Below, piece after piece: positions 14,594-50,893 of a stretch of 64,000 bases of DNA. A model generated the notes under the pieces. It saw only the letters and a program-made list of their open reading frames with translations, had not been told where the DNA came from and did not search any database. This DNA comes from a virus. Where the stretch lies: positions 1 to 64,000 of the IMG/VR virus record IMGVR_UViG_3300032116_000104. One strand, 5' to 3'. Every line of letters starts with the position of its first letter. The stretch's first letter is position 1. The translations under genes were made by a program, and so were the position numbers.

Positions 14594-14595
14594 AA

Positions 14596-14985
14596 TTACT
14601 TCGCAGAAGGGTATAGAGGATAGATGTCTTCGTTCCAATCATCTGGGACGATATTGTTCAGTTTCATGGCTGCTTGCTGAGCGTCATATGGATTTCCATA
14701 GCGCTTCTGATATAGACGCGCCTCTTCCAGGTCATCATCCCACTTCACTTCAAGAGTTGAGAATGGTCTATCCCACTTATCGGTACGTGTCATCTCTTGT
14801 TCAGCAGAAATTATTCCGTCCTGAAACTCTTTGCGTTTTGTGCGGCTTATCGTAAATGGCGGATAATCAAGAAGTATTGATAACTCCTTGTGCTTGCCGT
14901 GGAAGGCGGCCATCTGCTCTTCCGTAGCATTTGGCGGAGTGGCCCATTCGCTCTTGTAAATTGTGTTGTTTTCTTCCATGTCCAT
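14596..14985 (-). CDS. Hypothetical acidic protein (candidate immunity or partner protein)
   Basis: 129-aa ORF between two effector-bearing genes. Confidence 0.7.
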   Translation of the reverse strand: MDMEENNTIYKSEWATPPNATEEQMAAFHGKHKELSILLDYPPFTISRTKRKEFQDGIISAEQEMTRTDKWDRPFSTLEVKWDDDLEEARLYQKRYGNPYDAQQAAMKLNNIVPDDWNEDIYPLYPSAK

Positions 14986-23267: not shown

Positions 23268-26200
23268 TAGACAACGCTTTCTTTGCGATTTGGGTCAGGT
23301 ATTTGACGTGATGAAATCCATCTATCACCTACAGCGAGACGAAGTATTGCATTTTCACTCATTGTTGCCAGTTCATTAACATACAGGCGCATTTTAACAT
23401 CCCGAACCCTTAATCTTTCTGTTTCCGCCTGAACGCCAGCATTGGCCATATGATTTGTTACGCCAAGTTCATCAGCGATACCGCTAATTCTTTTTTCAGC
23501 CGTGGCAACATTCCACCCAAGTCCTGAACTGTCTCCCGATAGTTTTACTTCCCTGGGCATGCCCATTTCTTCTAGTAAATTGGCAACAATTTCTCCCCTT
23601 TTTGATTCCCTAGTTAGGCCAGCCATGGCAAAGGAGCCTTTTGGTATGACCAATCCAGAACCTGGAGCGGCAGATGCGTATGTATCAACTCCATAAAGAT
23701 TATCCAAAGCATCTGGATTATGTTTTATAAATTCCCTTAGTGGTATAACTATGGCACGACTTGACTCTGGAGTTTCCCTCGCTGAATGGCCAGAAACAAT
23801 ATGGTTCAGGGCAAAGTGAACGGTGCCCCTATTGAGCGGAATATAGTAATATCCAGTACTTTCTGTGCCCATAGGCATTGTCGCCCCATAATCTCCAGAT
23901 GGGCGCAAAATCAAATTTCCGTCCTCGTCAACTTCTGGTTCATAGGGAGTTTCATGAACCAGGAATAAGTCGTCCACCGAAAGTCCAGAGAAGTCGCTAT
24001 CTCGTGATGGGCGCAAAAGTCTTTCTTTCGTTTCGTCACTTATGTCCATCGCTTCAACTTGTTCAATCCATTTCTGTCTTTCTTCTTTTTCTTTCCTTAT
24101 TCCTTCTTCTCTTTGAATTTGCAATTTTTTCCTTGATTCTTCAACCATCTGGCGGCCAATGCGTGCCATTTCCTTTAATGTTTTTTCGGCTTCTGTATCA
24201 CCTCTTGATGACGCATAAAGAAGCGCTGCGACAAATGCTGATTCATCAAGACTCCCTTCACTGTTTGCATATGTAACTGCATATATAAAGTCAGATGCAG
24301 CCTGTTTTCCTTCTTCAGATGATTCTGGAAATCCAGATATAACATAAGGATTCAGGGGCATATCTTTTATTTCTGGGTTGTTCGCAACAACTTCTGGTCG
24401 GGCACCAAACATGACTTTTTCACCAGCAAAATCCCAAACTTCTATTTCCCAAACCGTTCTAAAGCCCTCCAGACCCTCGTCCGAAAGTATTGTAGTTTTT
24501 TCTCCCTTGAACTCTCCTGGCTGAAGTCGCTTGGGTGTACCAGACCTTAATCCCCTGCCAGTTGAACTGCGTAATCCCCTGCCGCTAAACGGGTCGCTTG
24601 GGTCAAATACCGTAGGCTCCTCATCCATCCCCATTCTTTCCCGAATTCTTCTCATCGTCCTTCTGCCTGCATCTGCAGCCCTAGATACACCGTCGTTGGT
24701 ATCTGGTGGAGGAAATGGATTACCGAACGGGTCGCTGGGGTTTTGTGTTGACTCTTCTCTAGTGAGCCTGCCTCTCGCCCTTGATGCGGCAGAAGAAACT
24801 CCTTGTCTTGCCGAGCGCGCCCTCTCCCTGTTTTTTTCTGTATCAATTCTTGCCCTTGCAAATCGCCCAGCATTGACGGCAGCATCCTTGAGTGGGTCGG
24901 GAAGTCCTTCTGGGGCAATTCTGTCAAGGCGCGAAGTTATTGCATTGGCTTGTCTTTGACTAAGTTTTCCGTCTTCAACAAGTTTGCCGACAACATAATC
25001 TGCGACATCCCTACCGCCCCTCCGCGCAAGTTCAAGACCTAGTTTCGTAATAGCAGCCTTGGGTCCAAATTTCATCGCTAAAGCAGTATCAAGAATCATT
25101 CCCGCTACTTCTTTTTCACCCTCGTCAAGGCCCATCCTCTCGGCAATAGCGTCAAGCGCCCTACCCTTGAGTCGCTCCCCAAGTCCACCTTTTCTCTTCT
25201 TTCTTTCTCTTCTCGGGCGAGATGTGTCAACTTCTGGAGTGGTCACTTCTGGAAGAGCAAACGGGTCGGCAAATGGGTCGCTTGAGTCATAGGTGCCAGG
25301 GGTTGTAGCAGGTGTTGTGGCAATTGTTCTTATAGGAGTTGCAAACGGGTCGGCAAATGGGTCTGCAAATGGGTCACTGCTAGACCTGAGGCCGCGAGAT
25401 TCACCCCTCATTAGCCCAGTATGTGTAATTTCTGTTCCTGGAGTCATTGAGGCAATATCGCCAATATCTCCGAGGTCATCTGCATCAATCTCAACAACGG
25501 CGTCAAATAGGAGTGGATTCTCCTCCATTGCAGAAAGCATTGGGGCCATATAGTTCTTGACTTGCTCGTCAAGCAGGGATGAATCAGATGACTTCGGTGT
25601 TCCTCTGGAGCCCATCAGTCTTGTGTCGTTGAGCAGTCTTCTTATTTCAGCGCTCTCTCTCAAAGAAGAAGAAACACTTCTCAGCCCAAGGTCGCTTGAC
25701 ATGTATGGGGCGTTTCCAGATAGTGCGTCTTCAACAGAGCGAGCCTGCTCCCTTGACATATTGCGCTGTGTAGTTACTGCTTGTATTCTAGAACTGCTTC
25801 TGGAGCCCATACGCATGGGGACTTCATCCATTTCCTCCCTATCAAAATTTGATAGGTCAAATCCGTATTCGGGTATCACCTCAATGCCATGCTCTTTTAC
25901 AGCCTGCAAGTCAGCAAGGTCATCTATTGATGACATAAAGCGCTTGAGGGCCAGAGCCTGATTGCGCTTTCTTCTCTGGAAGGTTCCCTCATCTGGCCTT
26001 TTTTCATTGCCAGATGCACGCATGGCTTCATCTGCGGCATTCTTAACAGCGGCCTTTAGTTGCATTAACTGGTCTTCATCAAGTTCCCTAAGGTCGGTCG
26101 TCCCAAAGTTCTCTTGTGAATACTCGCGGACAAAACTTAAATTCGTGGTTGGACCATATCTCCCATCATCCCCGCCATTAACACGGGCATTGATGTCATC

Positions 26201-29104
26201 AATCTCTTGTTGTATTTGTGATTTTGTAATGTTGTCCCTGGATGACGGGTCTTTTGTACTGCGCGCCTTCTTCAGGCGTTCCCAAATTCTGCTTCTTCTT
26301 TCTTTCCTTACCGTATTATTGAACTTCTTGCCGTCTGGACGCTTTGATGGCTCGGGCCCAGCAGGAGCATCAGCGGGCCGCCTCTCTGGCTGTGGCGATA
26401 CTGGGCGAGGAGCGCTAGGCACAACATCCAGTTCGTCCACTATGTCTGGGTCATTGACAACAGATTCTGGGGTGTCTGGTCTTGACGCTGGCTCAACACC
26501 AGGCGACTCTCTGCGCCGTCTCTCACGACGCAGTTGAATCATCTTCCTCATATCTGAGGCAATGTCACGGAAACTCTTCTCAAGCGTGTCGTCGCCAAAG
26601 TCTCTGTACCCATCGGCGCGGGCGTCTAGAGCCCTCGCAAGAATCTCTAATTCGCGGTCGTTGAGTTGCCCGAGGTTGTCTTTTCCGAACGATTGCTTGA
26701 TGTAGAAGTCAATAAAGTCTTTGCGCTGCTGATGCACCTTTGAGCGGCTTCTGGCTCTCTTCATAATCTTTGAATAGAGTTCCTGCATCTCTTCTGGGGT
26801 CATTGACTCAAGACCGTCAATCTCCCCCATGCTGAATCCGCCTGGAGCCCAATTATCTCTGCCCCCAGATAGCGCGGCAGGTACTTGTGGTGTCGGTACT
26901 CCTAGTTCTTCGGCAAGGTCTGGAGCGACGCTCGCTGGAGGTGCTGCTGGAGATACGGGGGGTTCATAACTCTGGGCAACCCTAGGCTTCGGACGCTCCA
27001 TGAACTCAATGGCATCATCAACCTGCTCGCCAGAAATCACGCCCCTTTTCTTCAGTGCAAATAGTTCTGCAGTTGTTTCAAGGTAGGCGACAGAACGAGC
27101 ATCTTGAATTGTAGAGGCAGATTCACCGCCTTGAATTGCTGCCGCAATTTCCATTTGCTCCCTGTAAGACCTTTTTCCAGCAAGCAGGTCAACTTTTTGA
27201 GCAATAAGTTGCTCTATATCGCTTCCAGCGTATTTTGATGTATCAACACCGCCAGTAAGTGCATCCATAACCATCTCGCTAATTTCGGCGTTTGTCATGT
27301 CATTAGTTATGACTCCAGCGCCTCTTAGGAAGTCCTCAACCTGCTCCATTTGCAAAACGTGACCGAATTCGTGGTACACAAAGTGAGTACCCCTCTCGGT
27401 AAATCCACCTTCTGCTGCTGCCAAGTCAATTGCGAACTTTGAGGAATAGTCTTGGAGAAGTTTTAGTTCGGCTGCAGCACGAGCAACCGCCATGGCGTTT
27501 TCCGCATCAGTGCCCTCTGTTCCTTCCTTTACCTGAAGGAGAAATGTCTCATCTGCCTGAAGTTTTTGAAGAGATGTTTCATCTACTTTAAGAATCTCAA
27601 GAGGATTGTACTCTATTGCATATAGCGTATTTCCTTGACCATCTGTTGTTCTTATTGCTTGCCCTTGGTCTCCAGCCTGGAAAAATGCAGTCCTGAGAAC
27701 CATTTTTTGTGTAACTTCTGGATAGTCGTATGACACTTCGGCAAACGCTTCAAGTTGTCCATTGAGTTGGTCAAACATTCTCGTCGTTTGACGACCAACT
27801 AGGTCTTTGTCTGGATAATCCTGACCAGCGAGATGGCTTCGGGCATGCCTGAGCGCATCGGCATCGTTATAACCAAGATTGCGTAACGCTGTATGTACGA
27901 AGACTGCTTCGTGTGCTCTCAGTTTCTCTTCAATAGAAGAATTTGCGGACAGGTTAATTCCGAGTTCTTGAAGGATTCTCTGTAGTTCTTGATGTTCAAT
28001 TCCAAAACTTTTATTTTTGTCAACTTTAATTGACTCCGAAAACGGACTAAGAAGAAAATCGTCAATCCTAAAATCTGGATTCATTCTTCCAGAATCAATC
28101 ATTGCTTGAAACAGGCTTGTTAGTGCCGCTGTTCTATCGCCACTCATATCCACGCCAAGACTGTCGGCAAGAAGTTGAACTGTTTTCATTCTGCGCTCAA
28201 TGGCGAGTTTCATACCCTCCTCACGCTGAGCAAGTGCAAGCACTTGTTCTGTGACTTGCGATGTTCTTTGGGCTGGCGGCACCCTGCCCATGACCTGGCG
28301 AGCCCTGTCAATAAAACTGGTTCTTGACCTGAGTCCTCTTGCTTCCGAAACAACCTCAGCGACATTGACGGCAGCAATGCCTACGCTGGAGAGCGTGGGT
28401 CTTCCAGAAAATGCTTGAGATATTTCAGAAATGATGTTGCCTATGTCAGCAACGGAAAGGGTGAAGCAGTTTGAGCCCTGGGCGTCCGTGAACTGGTTGG
28501 CCGCTGGAACTCCAGGAGGGCAACGCAATCTGCCTAACGCATCAACAACCATTCCAGCCCGCACGGCGGCACGGTTCACGAGTTTTCCAGCAGGATTGCG
28601 CTCGCCTATGCTCCGCCCAAGAGCCTTGACCTCTATTGGAGTCTTGTTTATTTGACCAGTCTTAGGGTTGATTTTGTGCTTTGTGATTTCAACTTGCGGA
28701 CCATTGACCAGTGAATCTCTGGCTTCCATGAAACTGGTTTTCTTAGGGCTGACCCATCCGTAATTCGGCTCGGTATCAAGACCCTGGGAGGCCATGAATG
28801 CCTCCCTATCGGTAACCCAATGCTTGAAGAACTGCCCTGGCTTCCGCTTGGCACTCGGGTCCCAAATTATGCCAGTGCGTTCCTTGTTGGCATTTTCGCC
28901 CTGTGTTCTTTTCTTGCCGTCGGTATTGCCTTTTTTGGGCATGGCGGCAGCAGATACATTGGCGTTTAGGCTCGCCTGCTTAGAGAGTATTCCGCTGATG
29001 GCCTTGAAGGCGACCGCTCTTTCGTTGAAGTCAGGGCGTGTGCTTTCTGCCTCAAACACTCTGGGCGCATAATAGCGATATTTGTTAAAACGCGCCCCCG
29101 TCAT
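23267..29104 (-). CDS. 1945-aa polyvalent-type protein with zincin metallopeptidase, five GLRS sites and DPF repeats
   Basis: KALG, RCPPG..NQFTD..C, HEFGH (27359-27373) with downstream ETTAELF; C-terminal LVHET...RGTVHFALNH domain. Confidence 0.85.
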   Translation of the reverse strand: MTGARFNKYRYYAPRVFEAESTRPDFNERAVAFKAISGILSKQASLNANVSAAAMPKKGNTDGKKRTQGENANKERTGIIWDPSAKRKPGQFFKHWVTDREAFMASQGLDTEPNYGWVSPKKTSFMEARDSLVNGPQVEITKHKINPKTGQINKTPIEVKALGRSIGERNPAGKLVNRAAVRAGMVVDALGRLRCPPGVPAANQFTDAQGSNCFTLSVADIGNIISEISQAFSGRPTLSSVGIAAVNVAEVVSEARGLRSRTSFIDRARQVMGRVPPAQRTSQVTEQVLALAQREEGMKLAIERRMKTVQLLADSLGVDMSGDRTAALTSLFQAMIDSGRMNPDFRIDDFLLSPFSESIKVDKNKSFGIEHQELQRILQELGINLSANSSIEEKLRAHEAVFVHTALRNLGYNDADALRHARSHLAGQDYPDKDLVGRQTTRMFDQLNGQLEAFAEVSYDYPEVTQKMVLRTAFFQAGDQGQAIRTTDGQGNTLYAIEYNPLEILKVDETSLQKLQADETFLLQVKEGTEGTDAENAMAVARAAAELKLLQDYSSKFAIDLAAAEGGFTERGTHFVYHEFGHVLQMEQVEDFLRGAGVITNDMTNAEISEMVMDALTGGVDTSKYAGSDIEQLIAQKVDLLAGKRSYREQMEIAAAIQGGESASTIQDARSVAYLETTAELFALKKRGVISGEQVDDAIEFMERPKPRVAQSYEPPVSPAAPPASVAPDLAEELGVPTPQVPAALSGGRDNWAPGGFSMGEIDGLESMTPEEMQELYSKIMKRARSRSKVHQQRKDFIDFYIKQSFGKDNLGQLNDRELEILARALDARADGYRDFGDDTLEKSFRDIASDMRKMIQLRRERRRRESPGVEPASRPDTPESVVNDPDIVDELDVVPSAPRPVSPQPERRPADAPAGPEPSKRPDGKKFNNTVRKERRSRIWERLKKARSTKDPSSRDNITKSQIQQEIDDINARVNGGDDGRYGPTTNLSFVREYSQENFGTTDLRELDEDQLMQLKAAVKNAADEAMRASGNEKRPDEGTFQRRKRNQALALKRFMSSIDDLADLQAVKEHGIEVIPEYGFDLSNFDREEMDEVPMRMGSRSSSRIQAVTTQRNMSREQARSVEDALSGNAPYMSSDLGLRSVSSSLRESAEIRRLLNDTRLMGSRGTPKSSDSSLLDEQVKNYMAPMLSAMEENPLLFDAVVEIDADDLGDIGDIASMTPGTEITHTGLMRGESRGLRSSSDPFADPFADPFATPIRTIATTPATTPGTYDSSDPFADPFALPEVTTPEVDTSRPRRERKKRKGGLGERLKGRALDAIAERMGLDEGEKEVAGMILDTALAMKFGPKAAITKLGLELARRGGRDVADYVVGKLVEDGKLSQRQANAITSRLDRIAPEGLPDPLKDAAVNAGRFARARIDTEKNRERARSARQGVSSAASRARGRLTREESTQNPSDPFGNPFPPPDTNDGVSRAADAGRRTMRRIRERMGMDEEPTVFDPSDPFSGRGLRSSTGRGLRSGTPKRLQPGEFKGEKTTILSDEGLEGFRTVWEIEVWDFAGEKVMFGARPEVVANNPEIKDMPLNPYVISGFPESSEEGKQAASDFIYAVTYANSEGSLDESAFVAALLYASSRGDTEAEKTLKEMARIGRQMVEESRKKLQIQREEGIRKEKEERQKWIEQVEAMDISDETKERLLRPSRDSDFSGLSVDDLFLVHETPYEPEVDEDGNLILRPSGDYGATMPMGTESTGYYYIPLNRGTVHFALNHIVSGHSARETPESSRAIVIPLREFIKHNPDALDNLYGVDTYASAAPGSGLVIPKGSFAMAGLTRESKRGEIVANLLEEMGMPREVKLSGDSSGLGWNVATAEKRISGIADELGVTNHMANAGVQAETERLRVRDVKMRLYVNELATMSENAILRLAVGDRWISSRQIPDPNRKESVV
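25340..25375 (-). repeat. Tandem 12-bp repeat encoding (DPFA)3; further DPF copies near 25260-25285, 24715-24733 and 24588-24606
   Basis: Units of GCAAA(C/T)GGGTC plus one base on the + strand. Confidence 0.8.
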
Positions 29105-30725: not shown

Positions 30726-33700
30726 TTAGAGGTCTTGAATCTCAACTTCTCTTCCGCGCTGATTGCGTCGGTTGACCGTTCTGGAACTCAACTCCTCAAC
30801 CGTTCTGTCAATGAATGTAGCCATGGCTGCTTTAGCGAGCATGTCAAGCATGGTTGCAAACTTCTGCTGACGCTCGTTGCCTCCGATGGCACCTTGACGG
30901 TCAATGACCACCATCATGGCGTCAAGGATTTCATCAACTTCATCTCTGGTCATCAGGATGCGCCCAGCGTTGGTTCTTCTGCTGCCCAACTTGGCTGCCT
31001 CTTGACGACTGATGAGGTCTTGAAGCGCCTTGAGGGCGTCTGATGTTCTCTTGTCCTGAGCCTTGTCTGCCTCACGGATTTCCTTCGGCAGTGAGTCAAG
31101 AATATCTTTGAAGAAAGTGGCTTCTGCCTTGATTTCCGTGCGGCCCTGCTTGGAGTCGGTTGACGACCTCAGGCCTCTCGTGTTCCGCGAGCGGGCGGCC
31201 ACATAATCCCTAACTTCCTGGGACACCACCCTGTTGGCATTGACTGGGACACTTGAGCGGAGACCCTCACCCATGCGTCGGGTAATGACTTCTCCTGCTG
31301 CTGGCTCCGCGTCTGGAGTTGGGACATTGTCGTCAATGTCCAGTGGGCGGCCCTCAACTCTCCTGACAACACCGCCAGTATCGTCAAACGCATCGTCTGA
31401 AATGTCGGCAATGTCGGCAGCAGCGCGACCCCTTCTCGGTGCAACCTCTATCTCTGGTCCATCCTTAATGAACTTGTCATTCTTGTAATAAGTGTCCAGT
31501 CCGTTAAGGGTTCTCAAGAGTGTTTCTGCTCGCTGAATAATCTTCTCTGCTGGACCATCGGTATCGTCGGCTTCCTCGGCGTCAGCGAGGTAGTTCTTAA
31601 CTCTCTGGATGGCAGCCTTGATTTGGTTCCTGCTCAGGTCTTCGCTGTCCATAATGTCAGCGATTTCATCCCAGGCCTCAGCATGGAGTTCATCAATTCT
31701 GCCCCTGTCTGAAAGTCTTGAAGCGTCGTTGACGGTCTTGTCAAGGAAGTTGTTGATTCTTCTTGAGTCGTCTCTACGCTCCGTGGTTGCGTCTTCGTCA
31801 TTTGCAGGACGAGGCTTGACGGCAACTTCTTTTGGCCCCTGTTGTGGCTGGCGTTGTGTCGGCTGCACTGGGCCCCTCTCGGCACGACGAGCCCCACGCT
31901 CTGCCCTTCTTTCGTCAGAAGCCTCTCTATCAAGCACTTCCTTCATAACGCGCTCATAGTCAACTTTGCGCATTCCACTTCTCTCTGGAGAGTGGTCTGC
32001 CATCCAGTTGAACTGTTGTTCTGCCGTCATGCCATCCCAGTTATCTGGCTTCATGCTCTGGAATGTCTTGCCCTTGCTGTCTTCCTTGGCCCTAGAGCCC
32101 ATCGGGCGTCCTTTGCTGCCACTGCGACCAGTATCACCGAGTCCTGTTACGCGGATTCCACCTCCGCCAGTATCGTCATCGCTGGTTGATGAACGCATGC
32201 CACGACCACTTGACTTCTTGGGATTGGCATCGCCAGTAATATTGCTGTACAGGGTATCAAGGGCCTTCCAGTCCTTCGCAAGAAGCGTTCCGTCCCCACG
32301 CCTGTTGTACTCCTCTCGGATTCTCATTGAGACGCCGAGGCTTCCACCCCTTGCGCTGTTCATGAAGAACACGAGTTTCTTCTGGCGGGCCTCATCAATG
32401 TCCGCAGGAGCGCCATTGTTATTATTTGAACGAAGGCCTAGGTTGCCGCGCTTGCCAGCCTGCTGGTCTTCCCAGTTGAGGCTCACATACTTTCCGCCCT
32501 CTGATTCGGCGGCCTGGTCAATTACGCCCTGAATGTCGGAGGTAACAACTGTTCTGCCGTCTCGGCGTGGCTCTTTTGCCGACTCAATGGCGTCTTCAAT
32601 CTGCTCAACCTCGTCTGGGGTGAGGTCAACTTTGCCATTCCTTGCGTTTTTAAGTTTCTCGTCAAGAGCATCAAGCGCTGCACCATTGGCAGAAAAACGC
32701 TTGAGCATTGGAATCTCGTCGCGAAGTTGTGCAATCTCATCGTCGCTGAGCGTCATTGATAGATTGTTTGCAACTCTTCTTGTTGAAGAACGCATTCCCT
32801 CATCTGAATCGGTCCGTGACTGTTGTGCCGCCTCGCGACGACGCATTGCACGCAGTTCCGCCTTGCGAACATCTTCACGACGCATTCCGAGAGACTCGGC
32901 CACTTCCTGGAGTGATTCACCTGCCTCGCGGCGTCTCAGAATTCGGTTTTCCGTTTTTTCTCTTTTTGCCCTTTCAAGACCTTCCTTGACGGTGGGTCTT
33001 GGTTTCCTGGCGGCGCGCGCAGTTGTGACCGCCCTGTCTTTCCCAGTCCAGTCCTTGAAAATCCTTGCCCTGGTCGCAAAATCACCTATTCCTTTATCGT
33101 CCCATGCATCAAAAACTCTTTCAGTTATTCCATCACCCCATGGGCCCATCATTTCCCTAACAGACGGGTTCTGCACTGGGAAGTCATCATCTATGCCCAG
33201 AGCGCTGGCAATTTGCTCGGCAACGATTTCCCCAAAACCGTTCAATACATCAACGAATGCCGATTCTTCTCCTTCGTCCCCAAATAGTCCATCAGACATG
33301 AGCCTGACCGCATCCTCTGCGAGAGAATCCATGCGAGAACGCATATTTTCTCTGGTAAATGGGGTGTTGGCAGCCGCATCAAAGAGTTCTTCAGTCCTGC
33401 TCCGAGACGACTCATCCAGGTCACGAATCATTGACCTTCCTGACTCCCTTTTACGCACATCAGACACTCTGTCTTTTCTGTCACGAGTTGACGACATCAG
33501 ACCTCTAATGCGTGCCTTTTGCTTATCGTTTGGATTTGGACGAATGGGCAATTTTTCAATATTGCGCTCCATGCGGTCACGCCAGTCATCCAGAAGTTCA
33601 ATTATCTCATCTTTGCTGAAAGAGTCCCAGTTTCGCAGCCACTCTCCCGTTGGGTCATCTGGGTCAGGGAGATACTCATTATCTGGGATGTTCGCTGCCT

Positions 33701-36700
33701 TGACTCTTTCCTCAAGAAGGTCACGAGCAAGGTAGGCAATATCAGTGACAGCCGTTCTATCTCCGCCACCTCCAGTGTTTCTGACACCATTTGCGGCTAT
33801 GTCAATTATTGACTGACGGATACGATTTAGTTCATCGCCAATGTTTTCTGGAGTTATGTCAGTGAGAACTATTGATTCAAAAAGTTCCATCGCTCTGTCT
33901 GCTGTGGCGGCATCCCATCCACCGCCCTGCTGCCCAGGCTGCATGAACCCCCTGATGTCACGCAACTCTTTTGACGCATCAAGTCTTGCCTGACGCGCCT
34001 GTTGTGCTGCCGCAGATGCGCGCCCTGCCTCTACGTCCCTCATATTGACGACTTCTACATCGCCAGTGCTGGAACGGACTCCTGTAGTTGGAAATTTGTT
34101 ATTTAACCCATTGGTCAGGGTATTGATTTCGTCTTCTGAGAATCCAAGTTCTCTGAGTTTGCCAACAATGTCTGACTCAATTTTCTGACGCGCCTCGCGA
34201 GACTCCGTTGGGTCAATCTTGCCCTTTTCATCACGCTTGACCATTCCAGAGCCGCGCTTACCGAGGTTCTCGGTCGTGGAGCGCATTCCACTACGGCGAC
34301 GCGCTGGGTTCAGGTTCTCAAGTTCTTCTTTAGAAACACCTTCAACAATGACCCTTCTTGCGGTCTTGGCGACTTCAAGTTGTCTGGCGAGCCTGGCTTC
34401 GTCTGGGCTTGGCTTGGCTCTCTCCATGTTCATATCGTCAACAGCAAGTTTGAGAACTCTATTCATGTCCTCAAAGTTGGTAGTCCCATTCTTCATGTCA
34501 CGAATGAGGCCATCAACCCAATCCTTGTCAAGGCCGCCCCTTGCCGAGTAGGCGGTTGGATAGTCTTCTAGTGACTCTTCAATATCTCTCAGAAACTCTG
34601 AAATTCTTCTGCCGCGACGGTCGGTAATTGACAGCGGTGAGTCCATTGAAGAACTCCTGAGACCACGAGCACGATTCATGCGTGGGTCTCCTCTGGTCTC
34701 TGCAATCTCCCATGCACGGAGGTCTTCCGCTCTGACGCCAAGGATTCCAGCAAGTTCACGAACTGGCGTTCCTTCAAAGCGCTTACGCAAGATGAATTCA
34801 GCAAGAGCCCTATCGGTGTCCTGGAATCGCGGCTCCTGACCTGGCTCCCCTCGTTGCGCAAGTTGTGCTGGTGTTCGTGCTGGGATGAGGTCTTTCGCCC
34901 TCTTCTTAATTTCCTGAATTTCTAGTTTCCGCACTTCTTCGCGCGACATACCATACTCTTCAGCAACATCATCAAGTACTTTGCCAGCAAGACGAGCATC
35001 AACAATCGCCCTGTCTCTGTCAATCTCAACCTGCATATCGTCCAGCAGCGCATCAACATCGTCTCTATCGGTTGAGGAACGAAGGCCTCTTCTTGAGCCA
35101 CCCGCATCTATGGAATCAGCAAGTTGCTGAATATCCTCAAACGGACCACCACGGTCTCTTCCGTATGCAGAGAGAGTGGCTATTAAAGCCAGTCTTGCGT
35201 TGTTCTTATCGTCCTCGCTAAGAGGAGACTTTGGCCTTCTTCTGCTCGGAAAGAATTTTGTAAAATCATCTCTGTCGCCGTCAGACAGTTTTATATATTG
35301 GTCTTTAAGTGTTGAAATAAGGTCGCTTAGTTCTTCTGCGCCAGGAAATTCGTCTGGAATGTCGCCTTGCATTACTGATGCAACTGTCCAGTCTGAACCA
35401 GGCTGCGGGGGAAAGTAATCGCCCTGTTCGCTAGGCATAAACCGCGAAAGAACCTCCCCGAGGTTTTCAAGGAGAATTTCATCTACATCATCCATTGATG
35501 TATCACCGTCATTGCCAAGACTTGCGTCAAGCGCCTCTATTGCTCGCTGAAGTGCTTTTGTCTGCTCATCTATGGTCATTTCCGCAAAGCGGTCTCCCAT
35601 TGCGTCAATAATTTCTCTTTGCTCTACGCTATTGGCCTTTGCCGTTCTTGAGCGAAGCCCATCAGGGCGACCCTTGGAGTCTCCAGCACTTTGCATGCTA
35701 CGCACCATGTTACGAAGCGCATCAGAGTTTTGCTTATCCGTACTACGAACTCGCTTGTTATTTACTGAGTCAAGAACTGTGCCGAGGGCAAGAAGAGACG
35801 CAATTTGGTCGTCTTCTGACACTGCTCTCTTCCCTCTGGTTTTATACATGTCACCAAAGCGACCCTTGCCGCCAAGTTTTTCATAGGCATCCTGGACTTC
35901 ACTCAGAAGGTCACTGACGCTCTCTTTGTCAACGCTCTCTGAACCATCAAGAATTTTGGATGCTGAGTAATCACCCGATGGCGCTTCCACGGATAGAAAA
36001 TCACTCATTAGTTCAGACAGGTATTCTCTGTAGAAATCAATTTCATCGTCACCAGTGGCATCAAACAATTCCAACTGGTCTTTAACGATATTTCTAAAAG
36101 CCTCTTTTCTTTCAGATGGAGACATTTTTGCCATTGATTCAATTGCTGTTCCAGAACGCAGTCCACCATCACGACGGTTCTTGGCCTCAAGTTCGGCTTG
36201 TCGCACATCCTCGCGACGCATGTTGAGCGACTGAGCAACATCCTGTAGTGACTCCCCAGCCTCGCGGCGCTTGAGAATCTCATCGTTTGTCTTGCGCTTT
36301 GCATCGCGCTGGCGGATTGCCCGAAGTTCAGCCTTTCGCACGTCTTCGCGGCGCATGCCAAGGGACTCGGCTACGTCCTGCAAGGACTCTCCAGCCTCAC
36401 GGCGCTTCAAGATGGAGGCGTCGTCGTTGCTGTCTTTTCCACCAGATGAACGGAGACCACGACCAGTGTTGATGCCCTGCCCCTGGGCGGCCTGAATTGC
36501 CGCCTGAGTATTTACGCGACCACGCGTTGACCTGTCGTTGACGCCTGGAATCGCAGGTCTTTGGAACGGTGTCCCTTCTTGAACGATGCCATCGCCGTCA
36601 CCGTCCCAAGCGTTGGGGTCAAATCTAGCGGTTAGGCCTCTTGCGAGGCGGCGTCCTTTTCCCCCTCCGCCACCACCAATCGCTCGCCCGATGCGATTGC

Positions 36701-38015
36701 CAAGCCCCTTCTTTAGAGTTTCAACTGCATCAATGAACTCGGGAGTGACACCAGAGGTAATCACGATTCCCTTTTCAGAGACATATGAATCTACGCGGTG
36801 GTAATCCATGATTGGGTCAAGGAGTTGCTTCGTGTGGAAAGCATTATTGATGTCAACTGGGATGACATACTCTGCTGACTTCACTTCAACTTCCTTCTCT
36901 GCCGAAGCAAGGACATCTTGGAGCATTTCCATGACATTCTTCAGTTTTGCAAGGTTGCGCTTGTTGAGCGAGCGGCCAATCTTCTCCTCAATGTCATCAA
37001 GGAAGAAGTCGTCAAAGTCCAAGTCGTCGGACTTTCCTGGCATTGGCATGAAGTCGTCTGGGTCATCCCCAAGATAGGCGTCCCCCTGCGGCTTCATTGA
37101 CACAGCAAAAGCCTGTGCTGGAGATGACGGTATGGCGGGAATCTCTGGCGTGTAGACAGTCTGACTCTGGACGCGCTCAGGCTTGCCAAACATGAATTGA
37201 CCATCCTGGAAGTGGAATGCCACTCTGTATGTTGACGACTCACCGTCGCTTGTCAGTCTGTCAAAAACAACAGTGTTCTCTGTTGCGGCCCTCACGATGA
37301 CGTTGGAGCCAGACCGCTTGACAAGTTCCCTTCTGAGGGCAACCATCAGCGGGTTCTCTGGGGCAGATGGACGAACTGGGCGAACGGCCTGCTGTGGCTT
37401 CGGCGCCATTGGCTTCATCATTCCAGACGGCATTCCAGGGCTGTGCGGCATGCCTGGCATGCCCATCATTCCGTGACCCTTCTCCTCATCCGCCAGAGTA
37501 GTATCTGACTTAACCGAAATCGTGCCAGTCAGTTGGTTGGCTCCATGAAGAACTGGGGAAACCTCGTAAAGTTCCACCTCTCTGAGGATGTTGGCCTGAA
37601 GATTAGGGTCAAAAGACGCCTGAATGGTCTTGTAGCCAATTGACCACTCCTGCTCCTCACCAAAGAAGGCAACATTGGCGAAAGCCTCACGGCCCTTCTC
37701 TGAATTGAGGTTGAACTGAACGCGAGCGTAAAGACCGCCGATTCCAGCAGCCTTCATCTTTCCTGGCAGTCTTGAGTCGGTTGGGGGAACTTCGTAAATC
37801 TCCAAAACCTTGCCGATGGGGTCATTCCAGTTGTGTCCCCAGACGACTCTTGGCTTGCGTCGCTTCAGACTTGAGTTAAAAGCACCTGGGAGAAGAACAT
37901 CACCGACGCTGTCCTTGTTTCCGACGCCAGCAACGAAGCACTCAACGATGCCCTGAGCCTGGTCAACATTGAATGTTCCAGAACTCGCTTTGAACTCAAT
38001 ATCAGAAAAAGACAT
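30726..38015 (-). CDS. Prohead (HK97-type, S78) protease fused to a ~2250-aa modular polyprotein
   Basis: N-terminal ~170 aa: G.VE.FV...GNKDS.GD...PGAF..SL......W.HNW..PIG...WSIGY...LYEVSPVL.GAN. Lies between portal and capsid genes. Confidence 0.92.
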   Translation of the reverse strand: MSFSDIEFKASSGTFNVDQAQGIVECFVAGVGNKDSVGDVLLPGAFNSSLKRRKPRVVWGHNWNDPIGKVLEIYEVPPTDSRLPGKMKAAGIGGLYARVQFNLNSEKGREAFANVAFFGEEQEWSIGYKTIQASFDPNLQANILREVELYEVSPVLHGANQLTGTISVKSDTTLADEEKGHGMMGMPGMPHSPGMPSGMMKPMAPKPQQAVRPVRPSAPENPLMVALRRELVKRSGSNVIVRAATENTVVFDRLTSDGESSTYRVAFHFQDGQFMFGKPERVQSQTVYTPEIPAIPSSPAQAFAVSMKPQGDAYLGDDPDDFMPMPGKSDDLDFDDFFLDDIEEKIGRSLNKRNLAKLKNVMEMLQDVLASAEKEVEVKSAEYVIPVDINNAFHTKQLLDPIMDYHRVDSYVSEKGIVITSGVTPEFIDAVETLKKGLGNRIGRAIGGGGGGKGRRLARGLTARFDPNAWDGDGDGIVQEGTPFQRPAIPGVNDRSTRGRVNTQAAIQAAQGQGINTGRGLRSSGGKDSNDDASILKRREAGESLQDVAESLGMRREDVRKAELRAIRQRDAKRKTNDEILKRREAGESLQDVAQSLNMRREDVRQAELEAKNRRDGGLRSGTAIESMAKMSPSERKEAFRNIVKDQLELFDATGDDEIDFYREYLSELMSDFLSVEAPSGDYSASKILDGSESVDKESVSDLLSEVQDAYEKLGGKGRFGDMYKTRGKRAVSEDDQIASLLALGTVLDSVNNKRVRSTDKQNSDALRNMVRSMQSAGDSKGRPDGLRSRTAKANSVEQREIIDAMGDRFAEMTIDEQTKALQRAIEALDASLGNDGDTSMDDVDEILLENLGEVLSRFMPSEQGDYFPPQPGSDWTVASVMQGDIPDEFPGAEELSDLISTLKDQYIKLSDGDRDDFTKFFPSRRRPKSPLSEDDKNNARLALIATLSAYGRDRGGPFEDIQQLADSIDAGGSRRGLRSSTDRDDVDALLDDMQVEIDRDRAIVDARLAGKVLDDVAEEYGMSREEVRKLEIQEIKKRAKDLIPARTPAQLAQRGEPGQEPRFQDTDRALAEFILRKRFEGTPVRELAGILGVRAEDLRAWEIAETRGDPRMNRARGLRSSSMDSPLSITDRRGRRISEFLRDIEESLEDYPTAYSARGGLDKDWVDGLIRDMKNGTTNFEDMNRVLKLAVDDMNMERAKPSPDEARLARQLEVAKTARRVIVEGVSKEELENLNPARRRSGMRSTTENLGKRGSGMVKRDEKGKIDPTESREARQKIESDIVGKLRELGFSEDEINTLTNGLNNKFPTTGVRSSTGDVEVVNMRDVEAGRASAAAQQARQARLDASKELRDIRGFMQPGQQGGGWDAATADRAMELFESIVLTDITPENIGDELNRIRQSIIDIAANGVRNTGGGGDRTAVTDIAYLARDLLEERVKAANIPDNEYLPDPDDPTGEWLRNWDSFSKDEIIELLDDWRDRMERNIEKLPIRPNPNDKQKARIRGLMSSTRDRKDRVSDVRKRESGRSMIRDLDESSRSRTEELFDAAANTPFTRENMRSRMDSLAEDAVRLMSDGLFGDEGEESAFVDVLNGFGEIVAEQIASALGIDDDFPVQNPSVREMMGPWGDGITERVFDAWDDKGIGDFATRARIFKDWTGKDRAVTTARAARKPRPTVKEGLERAKREKTENRILRRREAGESLQEVAESLGMRREDVRKAELRAMRRREAAQQSRTDSDEGMRSSTRRVANNLSMTLSDDEIAQLRDEIPMLKRFSANGAALDALDEKLKNARNGKVDLTPDEVEQIEDAIESAKEPRRDGRTVVTSDIQGVIDQAAESEGGKYVSLNWEDQQAGKRGNLGLRSNNNNGAPADIDEARQKKLVFFMNSARGGSLGVSMRIREEYNRRGDGTLLAKDWKALDTLYSNITGDANPKKSSGRGMRSSTSDDDTGGGGIRVTGLGDTGRSGSKGRPMGSRAKEDSKGKTFQSMKPDNWDGMTAEQQFNWMADHSPERSGMRKVDYERVMKEVLDREASDERRAERGARRAERGPVQPTQRQPQQGPKEVAVKPRPANDEDATTERRDDSRRINNFLDKTVNDASRLSDRGRIDELHAEAWDEIADIMDSEDLSRNQIKAAIQRVKNYLADAEEADDTDGPAEKIIQRAETLLRTLNGLDTYYKNDKFIKDGPEIEVAPRRGRAAADIADISDDAFDDTGGVVRRVEGRPLDIDDNVPTPDAEPAAGEVITRRMGEGLRSSVPVNANRVVSQEVRDYVAARSRNTRGLRSSTDSKQGRTEIKAEATFFKDILDSLPKEIREADKAQDKRTSDALKALQDLISRQEAAKLGSRRTNAGRILMTRDEVDEILDAMMVVIDRQGAIGGNERQQKFATMLDMLAKAAMATFIDRTVEELSSRTVNRRNQRGREVEIQDL

Positions 38016-38105: not shown

Positions 38106-40202
38106 TTACTGAAATGACCCTTGGACGCCAGCGTTCCACGCACGACGGGCTTCCTGTTCAGCGATTTCTGGCCTCTTCTTGCCCAAGAGGTTAGTGAACG
38201 TAGAGACGATTGAACTCCTGAAAAGCGTGCTTCGGATGTCCTCATCTGGGGCGTTGAGGGAAGTGAACATTGACGCACTCAGTTCACCAAATGTCTCGTC
38301 ATTCACTAGATTGATGCGCTCAATCTGGGAATTCACATGAGCGATGGCATCCTCTCGGGTGAATGGGGCAATCGGTAGACGCTTCTCCGCATAGGTTTCG
38401 CGGGCATCATTCATGATGGAAGTCAGGACTGGCCTGATGTCTTCCTCAATCTGTCTAGTCCATGTCTCCCTGTTGAAGATGGAGTCAATTTCCAAGGATG
38501 CCGTGGCGAGTTGCTTCTTCGCCTTGGCTCCGCTGGCCTTTTCCAGAACGACCCTCTGTTGCCTCTCAAAGATTCTCTCTAGGCTTCTGTCAAGAATCTG
38601 GGTCCATCTAGTGAGGGCAATATTGGACGCTTGGTCCAATTCTTGGTCCACCTTGGTTTGAATTGGCGAGTTAGCCAACGCCGACATTTGTTGTGGTGCT
38701 GGTGGCTCTTCTGTGGTGGCCATTTCGGGTGGAGCATCGTTTGGCCCCATTGGTGCTGGCGGCTCCGCTGCTTGGGCAGCAATTTGCATGGCGCCCTGCA
38801 TGGTCGTTGCATCTGGCGGTCCTTCTGGGGCGGCGTCAGTTGGCGGCATTCCTGGCATTCCTGGCATTCCTGGAGCACCTGGGGCACCTGGCATCCCTGG
38901 CATCCCTGGCATCCCTGGCATTCCTGGAGCACCTGGCATCTGTGCCTGCGGACCCTCTTCCATCTTCTTCTTGGTATTGGCGATGGGGGTGAGATTCGGG
39001 TTCATGAGAAGCGAGTCAGCAAGGTCGCTCTGAACATCCTTGCGTCCAGAATTAATTCTGTACTCGTTGGTACTGATGAGTCCATTCTGGAACTCATCCA
39101 TGAGGTAGCGCTGGCGCTCCTGCTCGTACAGAATCAGGACTGGAACATCCGATGTATCAAAGTCAATGTAATTGTTTTCATCAAGTTCGTCAAGGGCGCG
39201 ACCGAGAATTTCCAGATGCGGAAGCATTGTTTCGTTCCAGAAGACTCTGTGCTCCTCTGCGGCGTTGCTGAATGTCCTGCCCGCAGCGTTGCCAATGACC
39301 GACTCTGGCACTCCGAATGAAGCAAGAATCTCCTCTTTTGTGATTTGCCTCATCTGCATGTAGGCCGCATCACGGGGAGACGCAGATGTGTCAACATAAT
39401 CAACACCTTCGTCCGAAGAAATAACCGTTGTCTGACCCGTTCTGCTCAGGTTTCCACGGAAACGATTCTTGATTTCCTCTTTGTCGTCCTCGTCAATTTC
39501 CCCCCTGAGGACGATTAGTCCACCAGGACGACCGTCATTCAGCAAGTAGTTTCTGTTATAGACCTTTGCAAGATTCTCAATCTCTACGGCGACACCAGCG
39601 GACTCAAGAGGCGTCATTGAGAGGTACGGGTCAAGCGGGTGTGGCTTGCGAATCCAGACCACATCATCTGGCTTCATGATGATTGTTCTGCCGTCTGGCA
39701 TGATGACCTCATAGCCAGCGACAAAGTTCTTTGGGTCTGGAATTGGCGCGGTGGACTGCGGTGGCAAAAGGTTCAGGGCGATAACGGTTCCGTCTCTGGA
39801 ACGAATCTTCTCAATGAACGCACCTCTGGTGCTCATGAGAATCTGTGAGGAAAGCCTGTATCGGAAGATGAAGGAGTTCTCTCCTATGTTCGCTTTGGTA
39901 TTGAAGATTTTCAACAGGGGGCTGTCCTTAGCCGCCTTGCCGCCAAGAATCTGCCCGTCAGGTGAGTTATCCTTGCGAAGAATGACTGGAAGCCTTGCCT
40001 GGTTTCCAGCGATGGCATCAATGCATCGCGACACCCAAGTGACCTTCTGCATGCCCTCGCGATAAACGCGCTCAATGTCCCATGAGTCCTTGTAGCCACG
40101 GCCTGCATAGGCGGGGTTCATTGCGATGGGGGCGCCAGGACCTATTGCCGCCTTGGAAGAACCTGAGTTCAGTGACTTATTTTGATAACTATTCCAGGCC
40201 AT
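38106..40202 (-). CDS. Portal protein (HK97-like) with MPG low-complexity linker and MuF-like C-terminal extension
   Basis: V.RCID.IA...A.LP, G.A.I, P.DP..S..PL, N.GRPGG, I...FGVP...G; C-terminal RI..VNDET...IAEQE.RRAWNAG. Confidence 0.93.
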   Translation of the reverse strand: MAWNSYQNKSLNSGSSKAAIGPGAPIAMNPAYAGRGYKDSWDIERVYREGMQKVTWVSRCIDAIAGNQARLPVILRKDNSPDGQILGGKAAKDSPLLKIFNTKANIGENSFIFRYRLSSQILMSTRGAFIEKIRSRDGTVIALNLLPPQSTAPIPDPKNFVAGYEVIMPDGRTIIMKPDDVVWIRKPHPLDPYLSMTPLESAGVAVEIENLAKVYNRNYLLNDGRPGGLIVLRGEIDEDDKEEIKNRFRGNLSRTGQTTVISSDEGVDYVDTSASPRDAAYMQMRQITKEEILASFGVPESVIGNAAGRTFSNAAEEHRVFWNETMLPHLEILGRALDELDENNYIDFDTSDVPVLILYEQERQRYLMDEFQNGLISTNEYRINSGRKDVQSDLADSLLMNPNLTPIANTKKKMEEGPQAQMPGAPGMPGMPGMPGMPGAPGAPGMPGMPGMPPTDAAPEGPPDATTMQGAMQIAAQAAEPPAPMGPNDAPPEMATTEEPPAPQQMSALANSPIQTKVDQELDQASNIALTRWTQILDRSLERIFERQQRVVLEKASGAKAKKQLATASLEIDSIFNRETWTRQIEEDIRPVLTSIMNDARETYAEKRLPIAPFTREDAIAHVNSQIERINLVNDETFGELSASMFTSLNAPDEDIRSTLFRSSIVSTFTNLLGKKRPEIAEQEARRAWNAGVQGSFQ
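38845..38939 (-). repeat. 9-bp tandem repeat encoding (MPG/APG)n inside the portal gene
   Basis: CCTGGCAT(T/C) units on the + strand. Confidence 0.85.
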
Positions 40203-40445: not shown

Positions 40446-40493
40446 ATGAACAACATTACCTTATACGACGAACGGCTGTCGGAGGGCATATTT

Positions 40494-41801
40494 ATGTCAA
40501 CAGATTGGAACAAAGTTTTAGAGTATCTTCAGCCGAAGATGCCTGGGTTTTGTCCAGAACAGCCATCCATAACCCAGAAGGTATTTCTAAGAACCTATGC
40601 CATTGAGGCGCTGTTCGGGGGAGCGGCTGGTGGAGGCAAGTCATCCGCTCTTCTGATGTCAGCATTGCAGTATGTGGATATTCCTGGCTATTCAGCCATT
40701 CTTTTCCGCCGCACCTTCGCTGACTTGTCGCTCCCAGGAGCACTCATGGACCGCTTCAAGTCATGGATTGACAATTACGACGACGTTCATTGGAACGCCA
40801 ACTCCTATGTTGCGACTTTCCCATCTGGGGCCAGAATCTCCTTCGGATACCTGAACAACACGAACGACTACCTCCGATACAAGGGTTCTGAGTTCCAGTT
40901 CATCGGCATGGATGAGGTCACTGAAATTCGTGAATCTGACTATAGGTACCTGTTCTCCCGACTGCGTCGCCCTGCTACTGGACCACTTTCCAAGGTTCCC
41001 CTCCGAATGAGGGCCGCATCCAACCCAGCACCCAACTGGGTGAGACAAAGATTTATTGTTGAGGGCATTGATAATGGCAGAATTTTCGTGCCCTCCAAAC
41101 TGACCGACAACCCTGGAATTGATGCCACCTCGTACCGTCAAGCCCTTTCTGCCCTTGACCCTATTGAGAGAAGAAGGCTGGAGGAGGGCGACTGGTTTGC
41201 CACCACCCTAGGGACGCTCTTTGACAGAACATCGGCAATCATCATTGACCACTCAGAAATACCTCAGGTCCAGTCATCGGCTCGTGTTGTCCGTTTCTGG
41301 GACTTGGCGGCTACAGAGCCAAGTTATTCAAACCCCAATCCAGACTGGACTGTCGGTACATTGATGATGTTTGACCAAGGAATCGCCTACGTTTTGGATG
41401 TCAAGAAAGCCAGAGTGCGCGGCGAGAAGGTTGAGCAGTTGATTGCCCAAACCGCCTATGAGGACGGACATGCTGTCCCCATCAGAATGGAGCAAGAACC
41501 TGGTTCTTCTGGAAAAGCCCTAGTTGACCAATACGCAAGATATGTGCTTCCTGGATACGATTTTCAGGGCATTCGCTCTACTGGGGACAAGGTCACAAGG
41601 GCTAGACCATTTTCTGCCGCGTTTGCTAATGGCAATGTCAGGGTCGCAAGGGGGGCATGGCTGACTGATTGGCTTGATGAATTTTCGTCATTTCCTGAGG
41701 CCTGTGACCACGACGACCAAGTGGACTCCGCCGTAGGAGCATTCACATATTTGGCTGGACTTGGGTTGCCACAGAGACGAGCAATCAGTATCATCGTCTA
41801 G
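40494..41801 (+). CDS. terL: Terminase large subunit
   Basis: Walker A GGAAGGGKS, Walker B IGMDE, ASNP; nuclease motifs WDLA...PDWT and HDDQVD; GGAGG RBS. Confidence 0.95.
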   Translation: MSTDWNKVLEYLQPKMPGFCPEQPSITQKVFLRTYAIEALFGGAAGGGKSSALLMSALQYVDIPGYSAILFRRTFADLSLPGALMDRFKSWIDNYDDVHWNANSYVATFPSGARISFGYLNNTNDYLRYKGSEFQFIGMDEVTEIRESDYRYLFSRLRRPATGPLSKVPLRMRAASNPAPNWVRQRFIVEGIDNGRIFVPSKLTDNPGIDATSYRQALSALDPIERRRLEEGDWFATTLGTLFDRTSAIIIDHSEIPQVQSSARVVRFWDLAATEPSYSNPNPDWTVGTLMMFDQGIAYVLDVKKARVRGEKVEQLIAQTAYEDGHAVPIRMEQEPGSSGKALVDQYARYVLPGYDFQGIRSTGDKVTRARPFSAAFANGNVRVARGAWLTDWLDEFSSFPEACDHDDQVDSAVGAFTYLAGLGLPQRRAISIIV

Positions 41802-50497: not shown

Positions 50498-50893
50498 ATG
50501 CAGAATAAAGTCGTCAACGTCAAGGTCAAGAAGGGTGATTCCCTATCGGGGTTCCCTGCTGGTTCTGTCGTAGTTAAAAACGTCGCTGGAAGAACTATTG
50601 AGGTTGGTGAGCCAAGACTTGCTCTCTTCCCAGGGGAAATTGCTGTTTTCGCTGGCTCCGCCAGGGGCGTTGCCGAGGGGCTTGCCAACAAGACGCTCAA
50701 GTCTGTTCAGGTCGTTGATGCCTATGAAGAGCCTAAGTCGTATATCTCTAGCAAGAAAAAGAAGAATGATGTTCCAGCGCCAGATGAGGAAACTGTTTCT
50801 GAAACAGTTGCATCGGAGGAGCCAGAGTCATCTGTACAATTGGGGCTTGTAGACACCGAGTCTTCCCCCTCTGACCAGCAGGAAGGTAACTAA
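50498..50893 (+). CDS. Hypothetical protein upstream of sheath
   Basis: GGAG RBS; acidic disordered C-terminus; TAATG coupling to sheath. Confidence 0.7.
   Translation: MQNKVVNVKVKKGDSLSGFPAGSVVVKNVAGRTIEVGEPRLALFPGEIAVFAGSARGVAEGLANKTLKSVQVVDAYEEPKSYISSKKKKNDVPAPDEETVSETVASEEPESSVQLGLVDTESSPSDQQEGN

Follow-up and report, generated by a model that had tools for sequence, protein, structure and literature searches.

The window analysed here, the first 64 kb (positions 1 to 64,000) of the 84-kb IMG/VR virus record IMGVR_UViG_3300032116_000104, contains a gene for a 2429-amino acid (aa) protein, P0001, that begins with an HK97-type (S78) prohead protease domain and is punctuated by 12 copies of the motif G[LMV]RS and one of GLMS (hereafter the tags). 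The tags are very probably processing or boundary signals of a capsid-cargo polyprotein system, and probably cutting signals that would release many virion-packed proteins. A more specific reading is preferred here, at a probability of roughly 40%: that this capsid-cargo polyprotein is cut at its tags by a protease of the phage itself, most likely the S78 domain fused to it. Coordinates of all features are collected in Table 1.

The 13 tags lie at aa 520, 618, 786, 977, 1118, 1243, 1312, 1505, 1740, 1860, 1939, 2251, and 2281, and the segments that they delimit measure 98, 168, 191, 141, 125, 69, 193, 235, 120, 79, 312, 30, and 146 aa. Codon usage varies from copy to copy (GGT CTC CGT TCA, GGA CTG CGT TCT, GGT CTC AGG AGT and others), so that the tag is conserved at the level of protein. 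It could be imagined that the motif is a functionless by-product of composition or of recent internal duplication, given that the polyprotein is rich in Arg, Gly and Ser and that some of its modules, of the helix-turn-helix (HTH) type, are internal paralogues. However, 12 copies of G[LMV]RS compare with a mean of 0.23 and a maximum of four in 20,000 shuffles of the polyprotein, the codons differ between copies, and the tag surrounds unrelated modules in unrelated proteins and in every one of the 119 homologues described below, with its residues changing while its positions are kept. This explanation is refuted for practical purposes. An initial annotation of the window had claimed a 2429-aa protease-headed chain, and the translated open reading frame (ORF) is indeed free of stops with an S78 match at its N-terminus. 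Its 13 tag copies, their coordinates and the segment lengths were all recovered on re-count, as were its differing synonymous codons, and its claim that the protease domain and the first ~500 aa are free of tags agrees with the absence of any copy before aa 520. The comparison with shuffled sequence that it had put forward as a check shows the motif to be enriched.

The protease at the head of the chain is well delimited. PF04586 (Peptidase_S78) matches aa 19-166 (E 1.5e-11, 45.2 bits against a curated cut-off of 21), phrog_80 “head maturation protease” matches the polyprotein at 4.5e-29, and BLAST aligns the domain to HK97 gp4 with an E of 3e-12. In both BLAST and MAFFT alignments, H61 and S125 pair with H65 and S114 of HK97 gp4 (from NC_002167), which we take to be the catalytic His and Ser. 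These two residues are invariant in 64 family members, and the S78 core is 73-92% identical across all of the tag classes described below. The gene sits in the head module with the portal on one side and the HK97-fold capsid gene on the other, all on the same strand, and ~18 kb of cargo genes separate it from the capsid gene. Profile, catalytic residues and gene context all fit membership of the S78-type prohead proteases, and the domain is predicted to be active.

A megablast search of the polyprotein gene against phage records gave no match. At the protein level more than 270 homologous clusters were found, 1,300-4,200 aa in length and with the same N-terminal protease head, and IMG/VR holds 456 related capsid loci. 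The family consists of abundant, uncultured myoviruses of roughly 130-160 kb. All of the 119 homologues examined for code statistics are at least 3-fold enriched for [GR][LFM][RAS]S (median 8 copies, 0.75 expected). The first tag falls at about aa 450-560 in most of them, and the first 440 aa hold only three of 1,092 sites. The tag itself exists in lineage variants, namely GLRS/GMRS, GLAS, GFAS, GFSS, GLSS and R[LF]SS (the last in the relatives P0105 and P0119), and some chains mix Arg, Ala and Ser at the third position. Since Arg is replaceable, a basic residue is not required. The sequence logo reduces to a universal core of hydrophobic-x-Ser, usually preceded by Gly, with Arg or Gly ahead of that and Arg, Ser or Thr and then Gly behind. 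Arg-specific ADP-ribosylation at the tag was also considered and was rejected because the Arg can be replaced.

In relatives the tags behave as markers of boundaries. A module at aa 1257-1301, between the tags at 1243 and 1312, is kept in ~20 homologues of different classes and is flanked by tags on both sides in nearly all of them, with GMRS, GLAS, GVRS or GLQS upstream and GVRS, GLAS, GMAS, GFSS, GLSS or GLKS downstream. Four of the five C-terminal tag positions are likewise kept (1740, 1860, 1939 and 2281) and fall at hot spots of insertion. For aa 1700-2429, an AlphaFold2 model based on 57 sequences has a mean predicted local distance difference test (pLDDT) score of 76 and contains eight segments with pLDDT <50, which make up ~21% of its residues. 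All five C-terminal tags fall in such segments, between helical domains with pLDDT >90 (probability by chance ~4e-4). The flanks of all 13 tags are hydrophobic-poor and rich in Gly, Ser, Arg and Thr, and none of 5,000 random site sets was equally poor in hydrophobic residues. In relatives with recognizable enzymes, no tag was found inside a Pfam domain. P0105 has a complete UvrD helicase bounded by sites 1932 and 2585, P0118 has one bounded by sites 1054 and 1909, and P0037 has a pentapeptide unit bounded by sites 1017 and 1281; in P0105, ArdC-N plus an MPTase zincin comes after the last site. Across the relatives, the domains recognized are UvrD, ArdcN, MPTase-PolyVal, pentapeptide, KTSC, RNase_T and HTH.

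A natural split form is found in another record, G003, where a 566-aa protease gene is followed by a 907-aa gene. The protease ends at the equivalent of about aa 438 of the window polyprotein, and the 907-aa product corresponds to the conserved C-terminal part and still carries four tags. Its called starts read MRSEEF or MSSEEF, i.e., they are at a tag, and the position of tag 1 is equivalent to the gene boundary in G003. The comparison suggests that cargo entered, or was lost from, the junction of two ancestral head-assembly parts. Taken over the family, the comparative evidence supports the tag as a boundary signal between separate proteins, and the interpretation given in the initial annotation is partly supported. 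The expectation that tags lie in disordered linkers, raised in the initial annotation, is borne out by the five C-terminal tags in segments with pLDDT <50 and by the hydrophobic-poor flanks of all 13. Of the GLR|S cleavage site that it had proposed, the boundary behaviour stands (linkers, kept positions, bracketed enzymes and a gene boundary) and the enzyme stays a candidate. Its basic P1, likened to the K|S site of HK97, falls away: Arg is swapped for Ala or Ser between lineages and within single proteins.

Must a boundary signal be cut? The tag could instead be an uncut linker signal, either a modified (e.g., phosphorylated) Ser or a docking or hinge motif for packing or tail threading, with the proteins remaining intact. 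The Ser is invariant, the flanks are rich in Arg, and the phage carries a Zeta-toxin-type kinase domain as cargo. The virion RNA polymerase of N4 provides a precedent for a large protein that is packaged uncut (cited in PMC5512222). All tagged proteins, moreover, are of the type that exits the virion through the tail, which a shared transit signal would fit. However, modification directed at Arg is excluded by its replacement with Ala or Ser. Zeta-type kinases are known to act on a sugar nucleotide and not on proteins. So exact a match to the borders of modules, to hot spots of insertion and to a gene boundary is not expected of a modification site, nor is the near-absence of sites from the first 440 aa. 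We consider this alternative unlikely.

The polyprotein is not the only tagged protein. The whole 84-kb record holds 23 G[LMV]RS tags, all of them in five ORFs that together comprise 7,496 aa (p ~3e-13), and there are no copies in the remaining 18,819 aa of its proteins. Outside the polyprotein, five occur in a 1945-aa ORF, two in a 1195-aa ORF, one in a 596-aa ORF and three in the tape measure. In three related virus records, examined whole, tags are likewise limited to giant head-module ORFs and the tape measure. The initial annotation had treated one polyprotein as the substrate; the tagged chain is real, but three more head-module giants and the tape measure are tagged too. The module of aa 440-519 that precedes tag 1 recurs at 64 and 60% identity in the 1195-aa and 596-aa proteins, respectively, and in six module-bearing proteins found by pattern in G000 and G001 the first tag follows 34-87 aa after the start of the module. 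The protease of the split form G003 is without this DGDGDG module. The module may serve as an adaptor for cargo, used in targeting to the capsid or in docking of the enzyme. The 596-aa protein matches phrog_16619 “minor head protein” and carries PF12518 (DUF3721) at its N-terminus and PF06414 (Zeta-toxin/AAA_33) at aa 372-509 (E 3e-13); its toxin-type kinase may be delivered as virion cargo. In G001 (IMGVR_UViG_3300042402_002841), a 3112-aa protein encoded at 28352-37690 (-), outside the portal-capsid block, has a DGDGDG module at aa 53 and 11 GLAS/GLSS tags.

The tagged tail protein is predicted to be the tape measure; its match to phrog_4070 “tail length tape measure” is weak (5.5e-7), and its position, directly downstream of the sheath, tube and tail assembly chaperone genes, carries most weight. 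Its tags are GMRS at aa 41, and GVRS at aa 570 and GLRS at aa 575 in a Gly-rich central stretch. The homologue from the GLAS-class G001 has GLAS at aa 21, 580 and 589, two of these in the central Gly-rich stretch, and the tape measure of G003 has GMRS in the matching stretch. The tag class of the tape measure thus tracks that of the head proteins, which argues for one reader of both. The same covariation argues against a process strictly confined to the prohead, and with further substrates that include the tape measure the enzyme must act in trans and also outside the prohead. A broader proposal is that one code, G-hydrophobic-x-S, governs every protein that leaves the virion with the DNA, i.e., the polyprotein, the three head giants with the DGDGDG adaptor, and the tape measure. 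Delivery would then be of a plug-in kind, in which a module placed between two tags downstream of the adaptor would be packaged, cut free and injected, and a tail protein would be among the substrates of the head protease or of a partner enzyme. We hold this proposal tentatively and on balance doubt it; we know of no phage for which a head protease has been shown to process a tail protein.

Equal access to head proteins and tape measure would also be explained if the tags were cut by a host protease, during infection or after ejection into the next cell, and the lineage variants (Arg, Ala or Ser; Leu, Met or Phe) could then track different hosts. However, several chains mix Arg, Ala and Ser tags, and the polyprotein brings its own protease, a fusion by which the family is defined. 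No host enzyme is known to have such specificity. A host protease is therefore very improbable as the cutter.

How would cutting by a phage enzyme proceed? The polyprotein is envisaged in three parts, namely the protease with a conserved assembly region (aa 1-519), exchangeable cargo (aa 524-1739) and conserved helical domains (aa 1740-2429). The tag, G-[L/M/V]-R-S here and G-[L/M/F]-x-S in the family, would be a short linear processing signal in flexible linkers, and a phage protease would cut at or beside each copy. The S78 domain is the most likely enzyme, acting in cis and in trans, and the most likely scissile bond is that before the invariant Ser, by analogy with K103|S104 of HK97. Cutting would release ~14 pieces from the polyprotein. 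The same processing would extend to the tape measure and to the other three tagged giants of the head module, and the pieces would travel in the virion and be delivered along with the DNA. We infer the cutting, the enzyme, the bond, the timing, and the packaging and ejection of the pieces from the patterns described above.

Several points count for the S78 domain as the cutter. It is fused to its substrate, and that fusion defines the family. The near-invariance of the S78 core across tag classes, with H61 and S125 unchanged, parallels the constancy of hydrophobic-x-Ser in the tag. HK97 likewise cuts before a Ser (K103|S104), and SPN3US gp245, which acts on nine head proteins, favours Ser at P1'. 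At their conserved K-S-[IL]-G position, seven related capsid proteins read G-[FY]-K-S. The assemblin of herpesviruses cuts at (V/L/I)-x-A|S.

Other observations weigh against cutting by the fused protease. No cleavage product has been observed for any family member, and none of the members is known in culture. Of isolated phages, the nearest are Gordonia phage Chidiebere and Brevibacterium phage Cantare, which have no such tag; their capsid proteins are 47-49% identical to that of the window, their proteases measure 417-452 aa, and their cargo is encoded by separate genes between portal and protease. The tape measure is tagged, in a class that covaries with the head proteins, and a prohead protease is normally thought to work within the prohead, a compartment that the tape measure never enters. 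The expected capsid maturation site shows no clear tag and no covariation with tag class among 80 aligned relatives. At the family-conserved [K/x]-[S/T]-[I/L/V]-G position of the capsid protein, 42 of 81 sequences read hydrophobic-x-S/T and seven of 81 G-[FY]-K-S, and the window capsid protein has GLGS at aa 92-95, beside this [ST]-[ILV]-G position. Alignment to the K|S site of HK97 is ambiguous, with MAFFT placing that site elsewhere, at aa ~143 of the window capsid protein. No column of the S78 core tracks tag class and the top covarying columns all lie outside the catalytic core, a null result that is neutral if the enzyme reads only the invariant residues. Finally, there is a second candidate enzyme, marked by a conserved HExxH...E motif in the 1945-aa protein. 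As a separate matter, a repeated DARTPTAH peptide in Chidiebere was tried as a counterpart of the tag and rejected, being a tail-fibre repeat.

The second candidate would retain the same sites and the same polyprotein logic but assign cutting to a zincin-like metallopeptidase within the neighbouring 1945-aa protein. HEFGH is encoded at 27359-27373 (-), with ETTAE downstream, and HExxH and the downstream E-x-x-x-E are invariant and occupy the same position in the homologous giant proteins of four genomes. Such an enzyme would cut Gly|Leu/Met/Phe with the hydrophobic residue in its S1' pocket, in the cytoplasm or after ejection. Zincins of the thermolysin and matrix metalloproteinase types commonly cut before a hydrophobic P1', often after Gly. 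MPTase zincin domains have been proposed to auto-process the polyvalent proteins considered below (Iyer et al., 2017; PMC5512222). The tags in the tape measure suit an enzyme that is not confined to the prohead, and action outside the prohead would explain them. However, the HEFGH-bearing domain has no Pfam or PHROG match and its AlphaFold2 model is poor (mean pLDDT 52) and without a fold match, so that a short motif is what marks it as a candidate protease. Across four genomes with a common tag core, identity of the domain is no more than 17-21%, compared with 73-92% for the S78 core. Zincin modules also appear tag-bracketed like cargo: in the 3112-aa protein of G001, HEW[GA]H occurs at aa 250, 555 and 938, once in each of three successive segments bounded by tags (87, 376, 702 and 1137). 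The 1945-aa protein of the window is itself encoded in the head module, and the candidate enzyme may thus meet the same access problem for the tape measure. HEFGH...ETTAE may mark a new zincin family or may be a false lead, and a zincin is an improbable choice of cutter compared with the S78 domain.

Several regions of the polyprotein can be given provisional roles. The conserved region at aa 216-439 is presumably concerned with assembly. The cargo region holds several HTH modules resembling sigma-70 region 4 (PF04545, PF04255 [DUF433] and PF02796 [HTH_7]), which may bind DNA or RNA polymerase as cargo; these modules, at 32845-36413 (-), contain near-identical copies of “ILKRREAGESLQDVA(E/Q)SL(G/N)MRREDVR(K/Q)AEL.” Few or no homologous high-scoring segment pairs from relatives cover aa 620-1000. 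The C-terminal 690 aa are kept throughout the family at ~30% identity, the last piece of ~146 aa being the most conserved, and a fold search of this conserved region returned only generic helical bundles; a scaffold role for it is a guess. A 400-aa frame on the opposite strand within the gene, at 32533-33735 (+), contains one chance GVRS and is taken as a shadow ORF rather than a gene.

The genome around the polyprotein gene is that of a myovirus, with sheath and tube genes as well as tail chaperone and baseplate wedge genes (Table 1). The interval from portal to capsid comprises ~25 kb of minus-strand genes for very large proteins, of which the polyprotein gene is the first. Over the mature fold, the capsid protein shares 40% identity with HK97 gp5. 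The 502-aa protein encoded next to the polyprotein had no family match. A stretch of ~70 aa towards its C-terminus (aa 393-473) has counterparts, 55-65% identical, in the C-terminal regions of Gordonia phage capsid maturation proteases, and also in hypothetical, protease-annotated and portal-annotated genes of other phages; it is a mobile head-assembly peptide.

Table 1. Features of the polyprotein gene and its surroundings (positions in the window unless another record is named; tag positions are low coordinates)
Feature	Position	Strand	Basis or content
Protease-headed polyprotein P0001, whole gene, 2429 aa	30726..38015	-	Open frame without stop
HK97-type prohead serine protease domain (S78), aa 1-175	37491..38015	-	PF04586, phrog_80, BLAST to HK97 gp4
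Family-conserved region after Met/Pro/Gly-rich linker, aa 216-439	36699..37370	-	Present in all homologues
Shared “FDPxAWDGDGDG-VQ-TPFQRPA” module, aa 440-519, directly before tag 1	36459..36698	-	Copies in two other ORFs
Tag 1, GLRS, aa 520; divides conserved N-terminal part from cargo	36447..36458	-	
Variable cargo region, aa 524-1739	32799..36446	-	Tags at 36153, 35649, 35076, 34653, 34278, 34071, 33492 (GLMS)
Family-conserved C-terminal region, aa 1740-2429	30729..32798	-	Tags at 32787, 32427, 32190, 31254, 31164 separate helical domains
502-aa protein, Cys-rich with highly acidic repeats	29122-30630	-	
1945-aa head-module protein	23267..29104	-	Five GLRS at 28325, 25676, 25382, 24566, 24542
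1195-aa protein	15005..18592	-	N-terminal domain, DGDGDG module, GLRS (17579), GMRS (17540), then ~850 aa cargo
596-aa protein	12848..14638	-	DUF3721, shared module, GLRS (13643), then Zeta-toxin-type kinase domain
Major capsid protein, HK97 fold, 442 aa, N-terminal delta-like domain	11356..12684	-	PF05065 5.5e-45
Portal, directly upstream of polyprotein gene	38106..40202	-	phrog_2662 2e-67; no tag
Large terminase	40446..41801		
PAPS-reductase-like gene (phrog_2302), adjoining ParB-like nuclease or partition gene	46757-47911, 45951-46754	+	Between terminase and tail genes
Sheath	50893..52356		
Tube	52370..52843		
Tape-measure-like protein, 1331 aa	53628..57623	+	GMRS (53748), GVRS (55335), GLRS (55350)
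Split polyprotein of G003 (IMGVR_UViG_3300017969_000006): 566-aa protease gene, then 907-aa gene	61239-65809 (in G003)	+	

If the tags are cut, a family of uncultured myoviruses would rely on genuine polyprotein processing to package and set free a varying cargo, which includes DNA-binding modules, helicases, ArdC-type anti-restriction units, pentapeptide proteins and a Zeta-type kinase. An HK97-type protease, or else a phage zincin, would then have a new specificity, and a simple sequence rule would allow thousands of giant “hypothetical” phage proteins to be split into real functional units. Cutting would also supply a candidate enzyme for the processing of tape measures, for which no protease is, to our knowledge, known in model phages, and a natural template for loading foreign proteins into capsids. 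In the literature searched, polyvalent proteins and head-protease codes are known already; the protease-headed architecture and the tag motif were not found there. The remark in the initial annotation that polyprotein processing on such a scale would be unusual for a tailed phage agrees with that literature, in which none is described.

How does this arrangement compare with known systems? In HK97, the capsid maturation cut falls at K103|S104 with Ser at P1' (PMC10275583), and the HK97 record reads TFNK|SLGS at this point. The window shares with HK97 the protease family (S78, with the His and Ser aligned) and the capsid fold (40% identity). HK97 gp4 differs in that it measures 225 aa, carries no cargo and has the removal of the capsid delta domain as its known job. 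We know of no G-hydrophobic-x-S code for it.

P2 gpO, lambda C/Nu3 and Mu I/Z likewise join a head protease, at the N-terminus, to an assembly or scaffold part, at the C-terminus, in one reading frame. The split form of G003, a protease gene followed by the 907-aa gene, resembles an unfused version of this arrangement. The family differs from these phages in having exchangeable cargo, as much as several thousand residues of it, inserted between its two conserved parts. The polyproteins of RNA viruses, e.g., that cut by picornavirus 3C, also combine a protease encoded in cis with a short degenerate linker code between functional proteins. However, their protease fold is unrelated, and the virus here is a DNA phage with several tagged substrates from separate genes. 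Processing in RNA viruses is for genome expression, while here it would serve virion cargo.

The prohead proteases of T4, phiKZ and SPN3US belong to another family, MEROPS S77. Their cleavage codes are [L/I]-x-E for T4 gp21, [S/A/G]-x-E for phiKZ gp175 and A-x-E for SPN3US gp245. SPN3US gp245 cuts nine head proteins at 14 sites, with Ser preferred at P1' and several cuts within one propeptide (PMC10052503). The N-terminal propeptides of T4 act as targeting sequences. The likeness lies in a head-maturation protease, many internal or ejection proteins and a motif of three residues. In contrast, the enzymes of T4, phiKZ and SPN3US cut after Glu, and their substrates are mostly products of separate genes that lose an N-terminal propeptide. 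They have no protease-headed chain of ~14 modules, and no tape measure is reported among their substrates.

Alongside these head-protease codes, the closest concept is that of the polyvalent proteins, which are likewise giant, multidomain and encoded beside virion genes (Iyer, Burroughs, Anand, de Souza and Aravind, 2017). Literature searches for a protease-headed polyprotein or for the tag motif returned nothing beyond this work (PMC5512222). In the searched passages of PMC5512222, a linker punctuation motif, a module before the first site and a tagged tape measure are not described. The work does describe exchangeable conflict-type domains (ArdC-N, MPTase zincin, helicases, HTH and Zeta-type kinase), and proposes that the proteins are packaged, injected and possibly auto-processed by an embedded peptidase; an assemblin-like peptidase is rare among them and C-terminal (PMC5512222). 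Here, in contrast, the S78 protease is N-terminal in every homologue, across more than 270 clusters. The C-terminal place of the peptidase in polyvalent proteins is a tendency rather than part of their definition, and the polyprotein is therefore regarded as a new architectural variant. It has many unrelated domains, a variable middle between conserved N- and C-terminal parts, and a late, virion-gene context directly downstream of the portal. The polyprotein thus fits the polyvalent-protein concept, and its pieces are predicted to be packaged and delivered with the virion.

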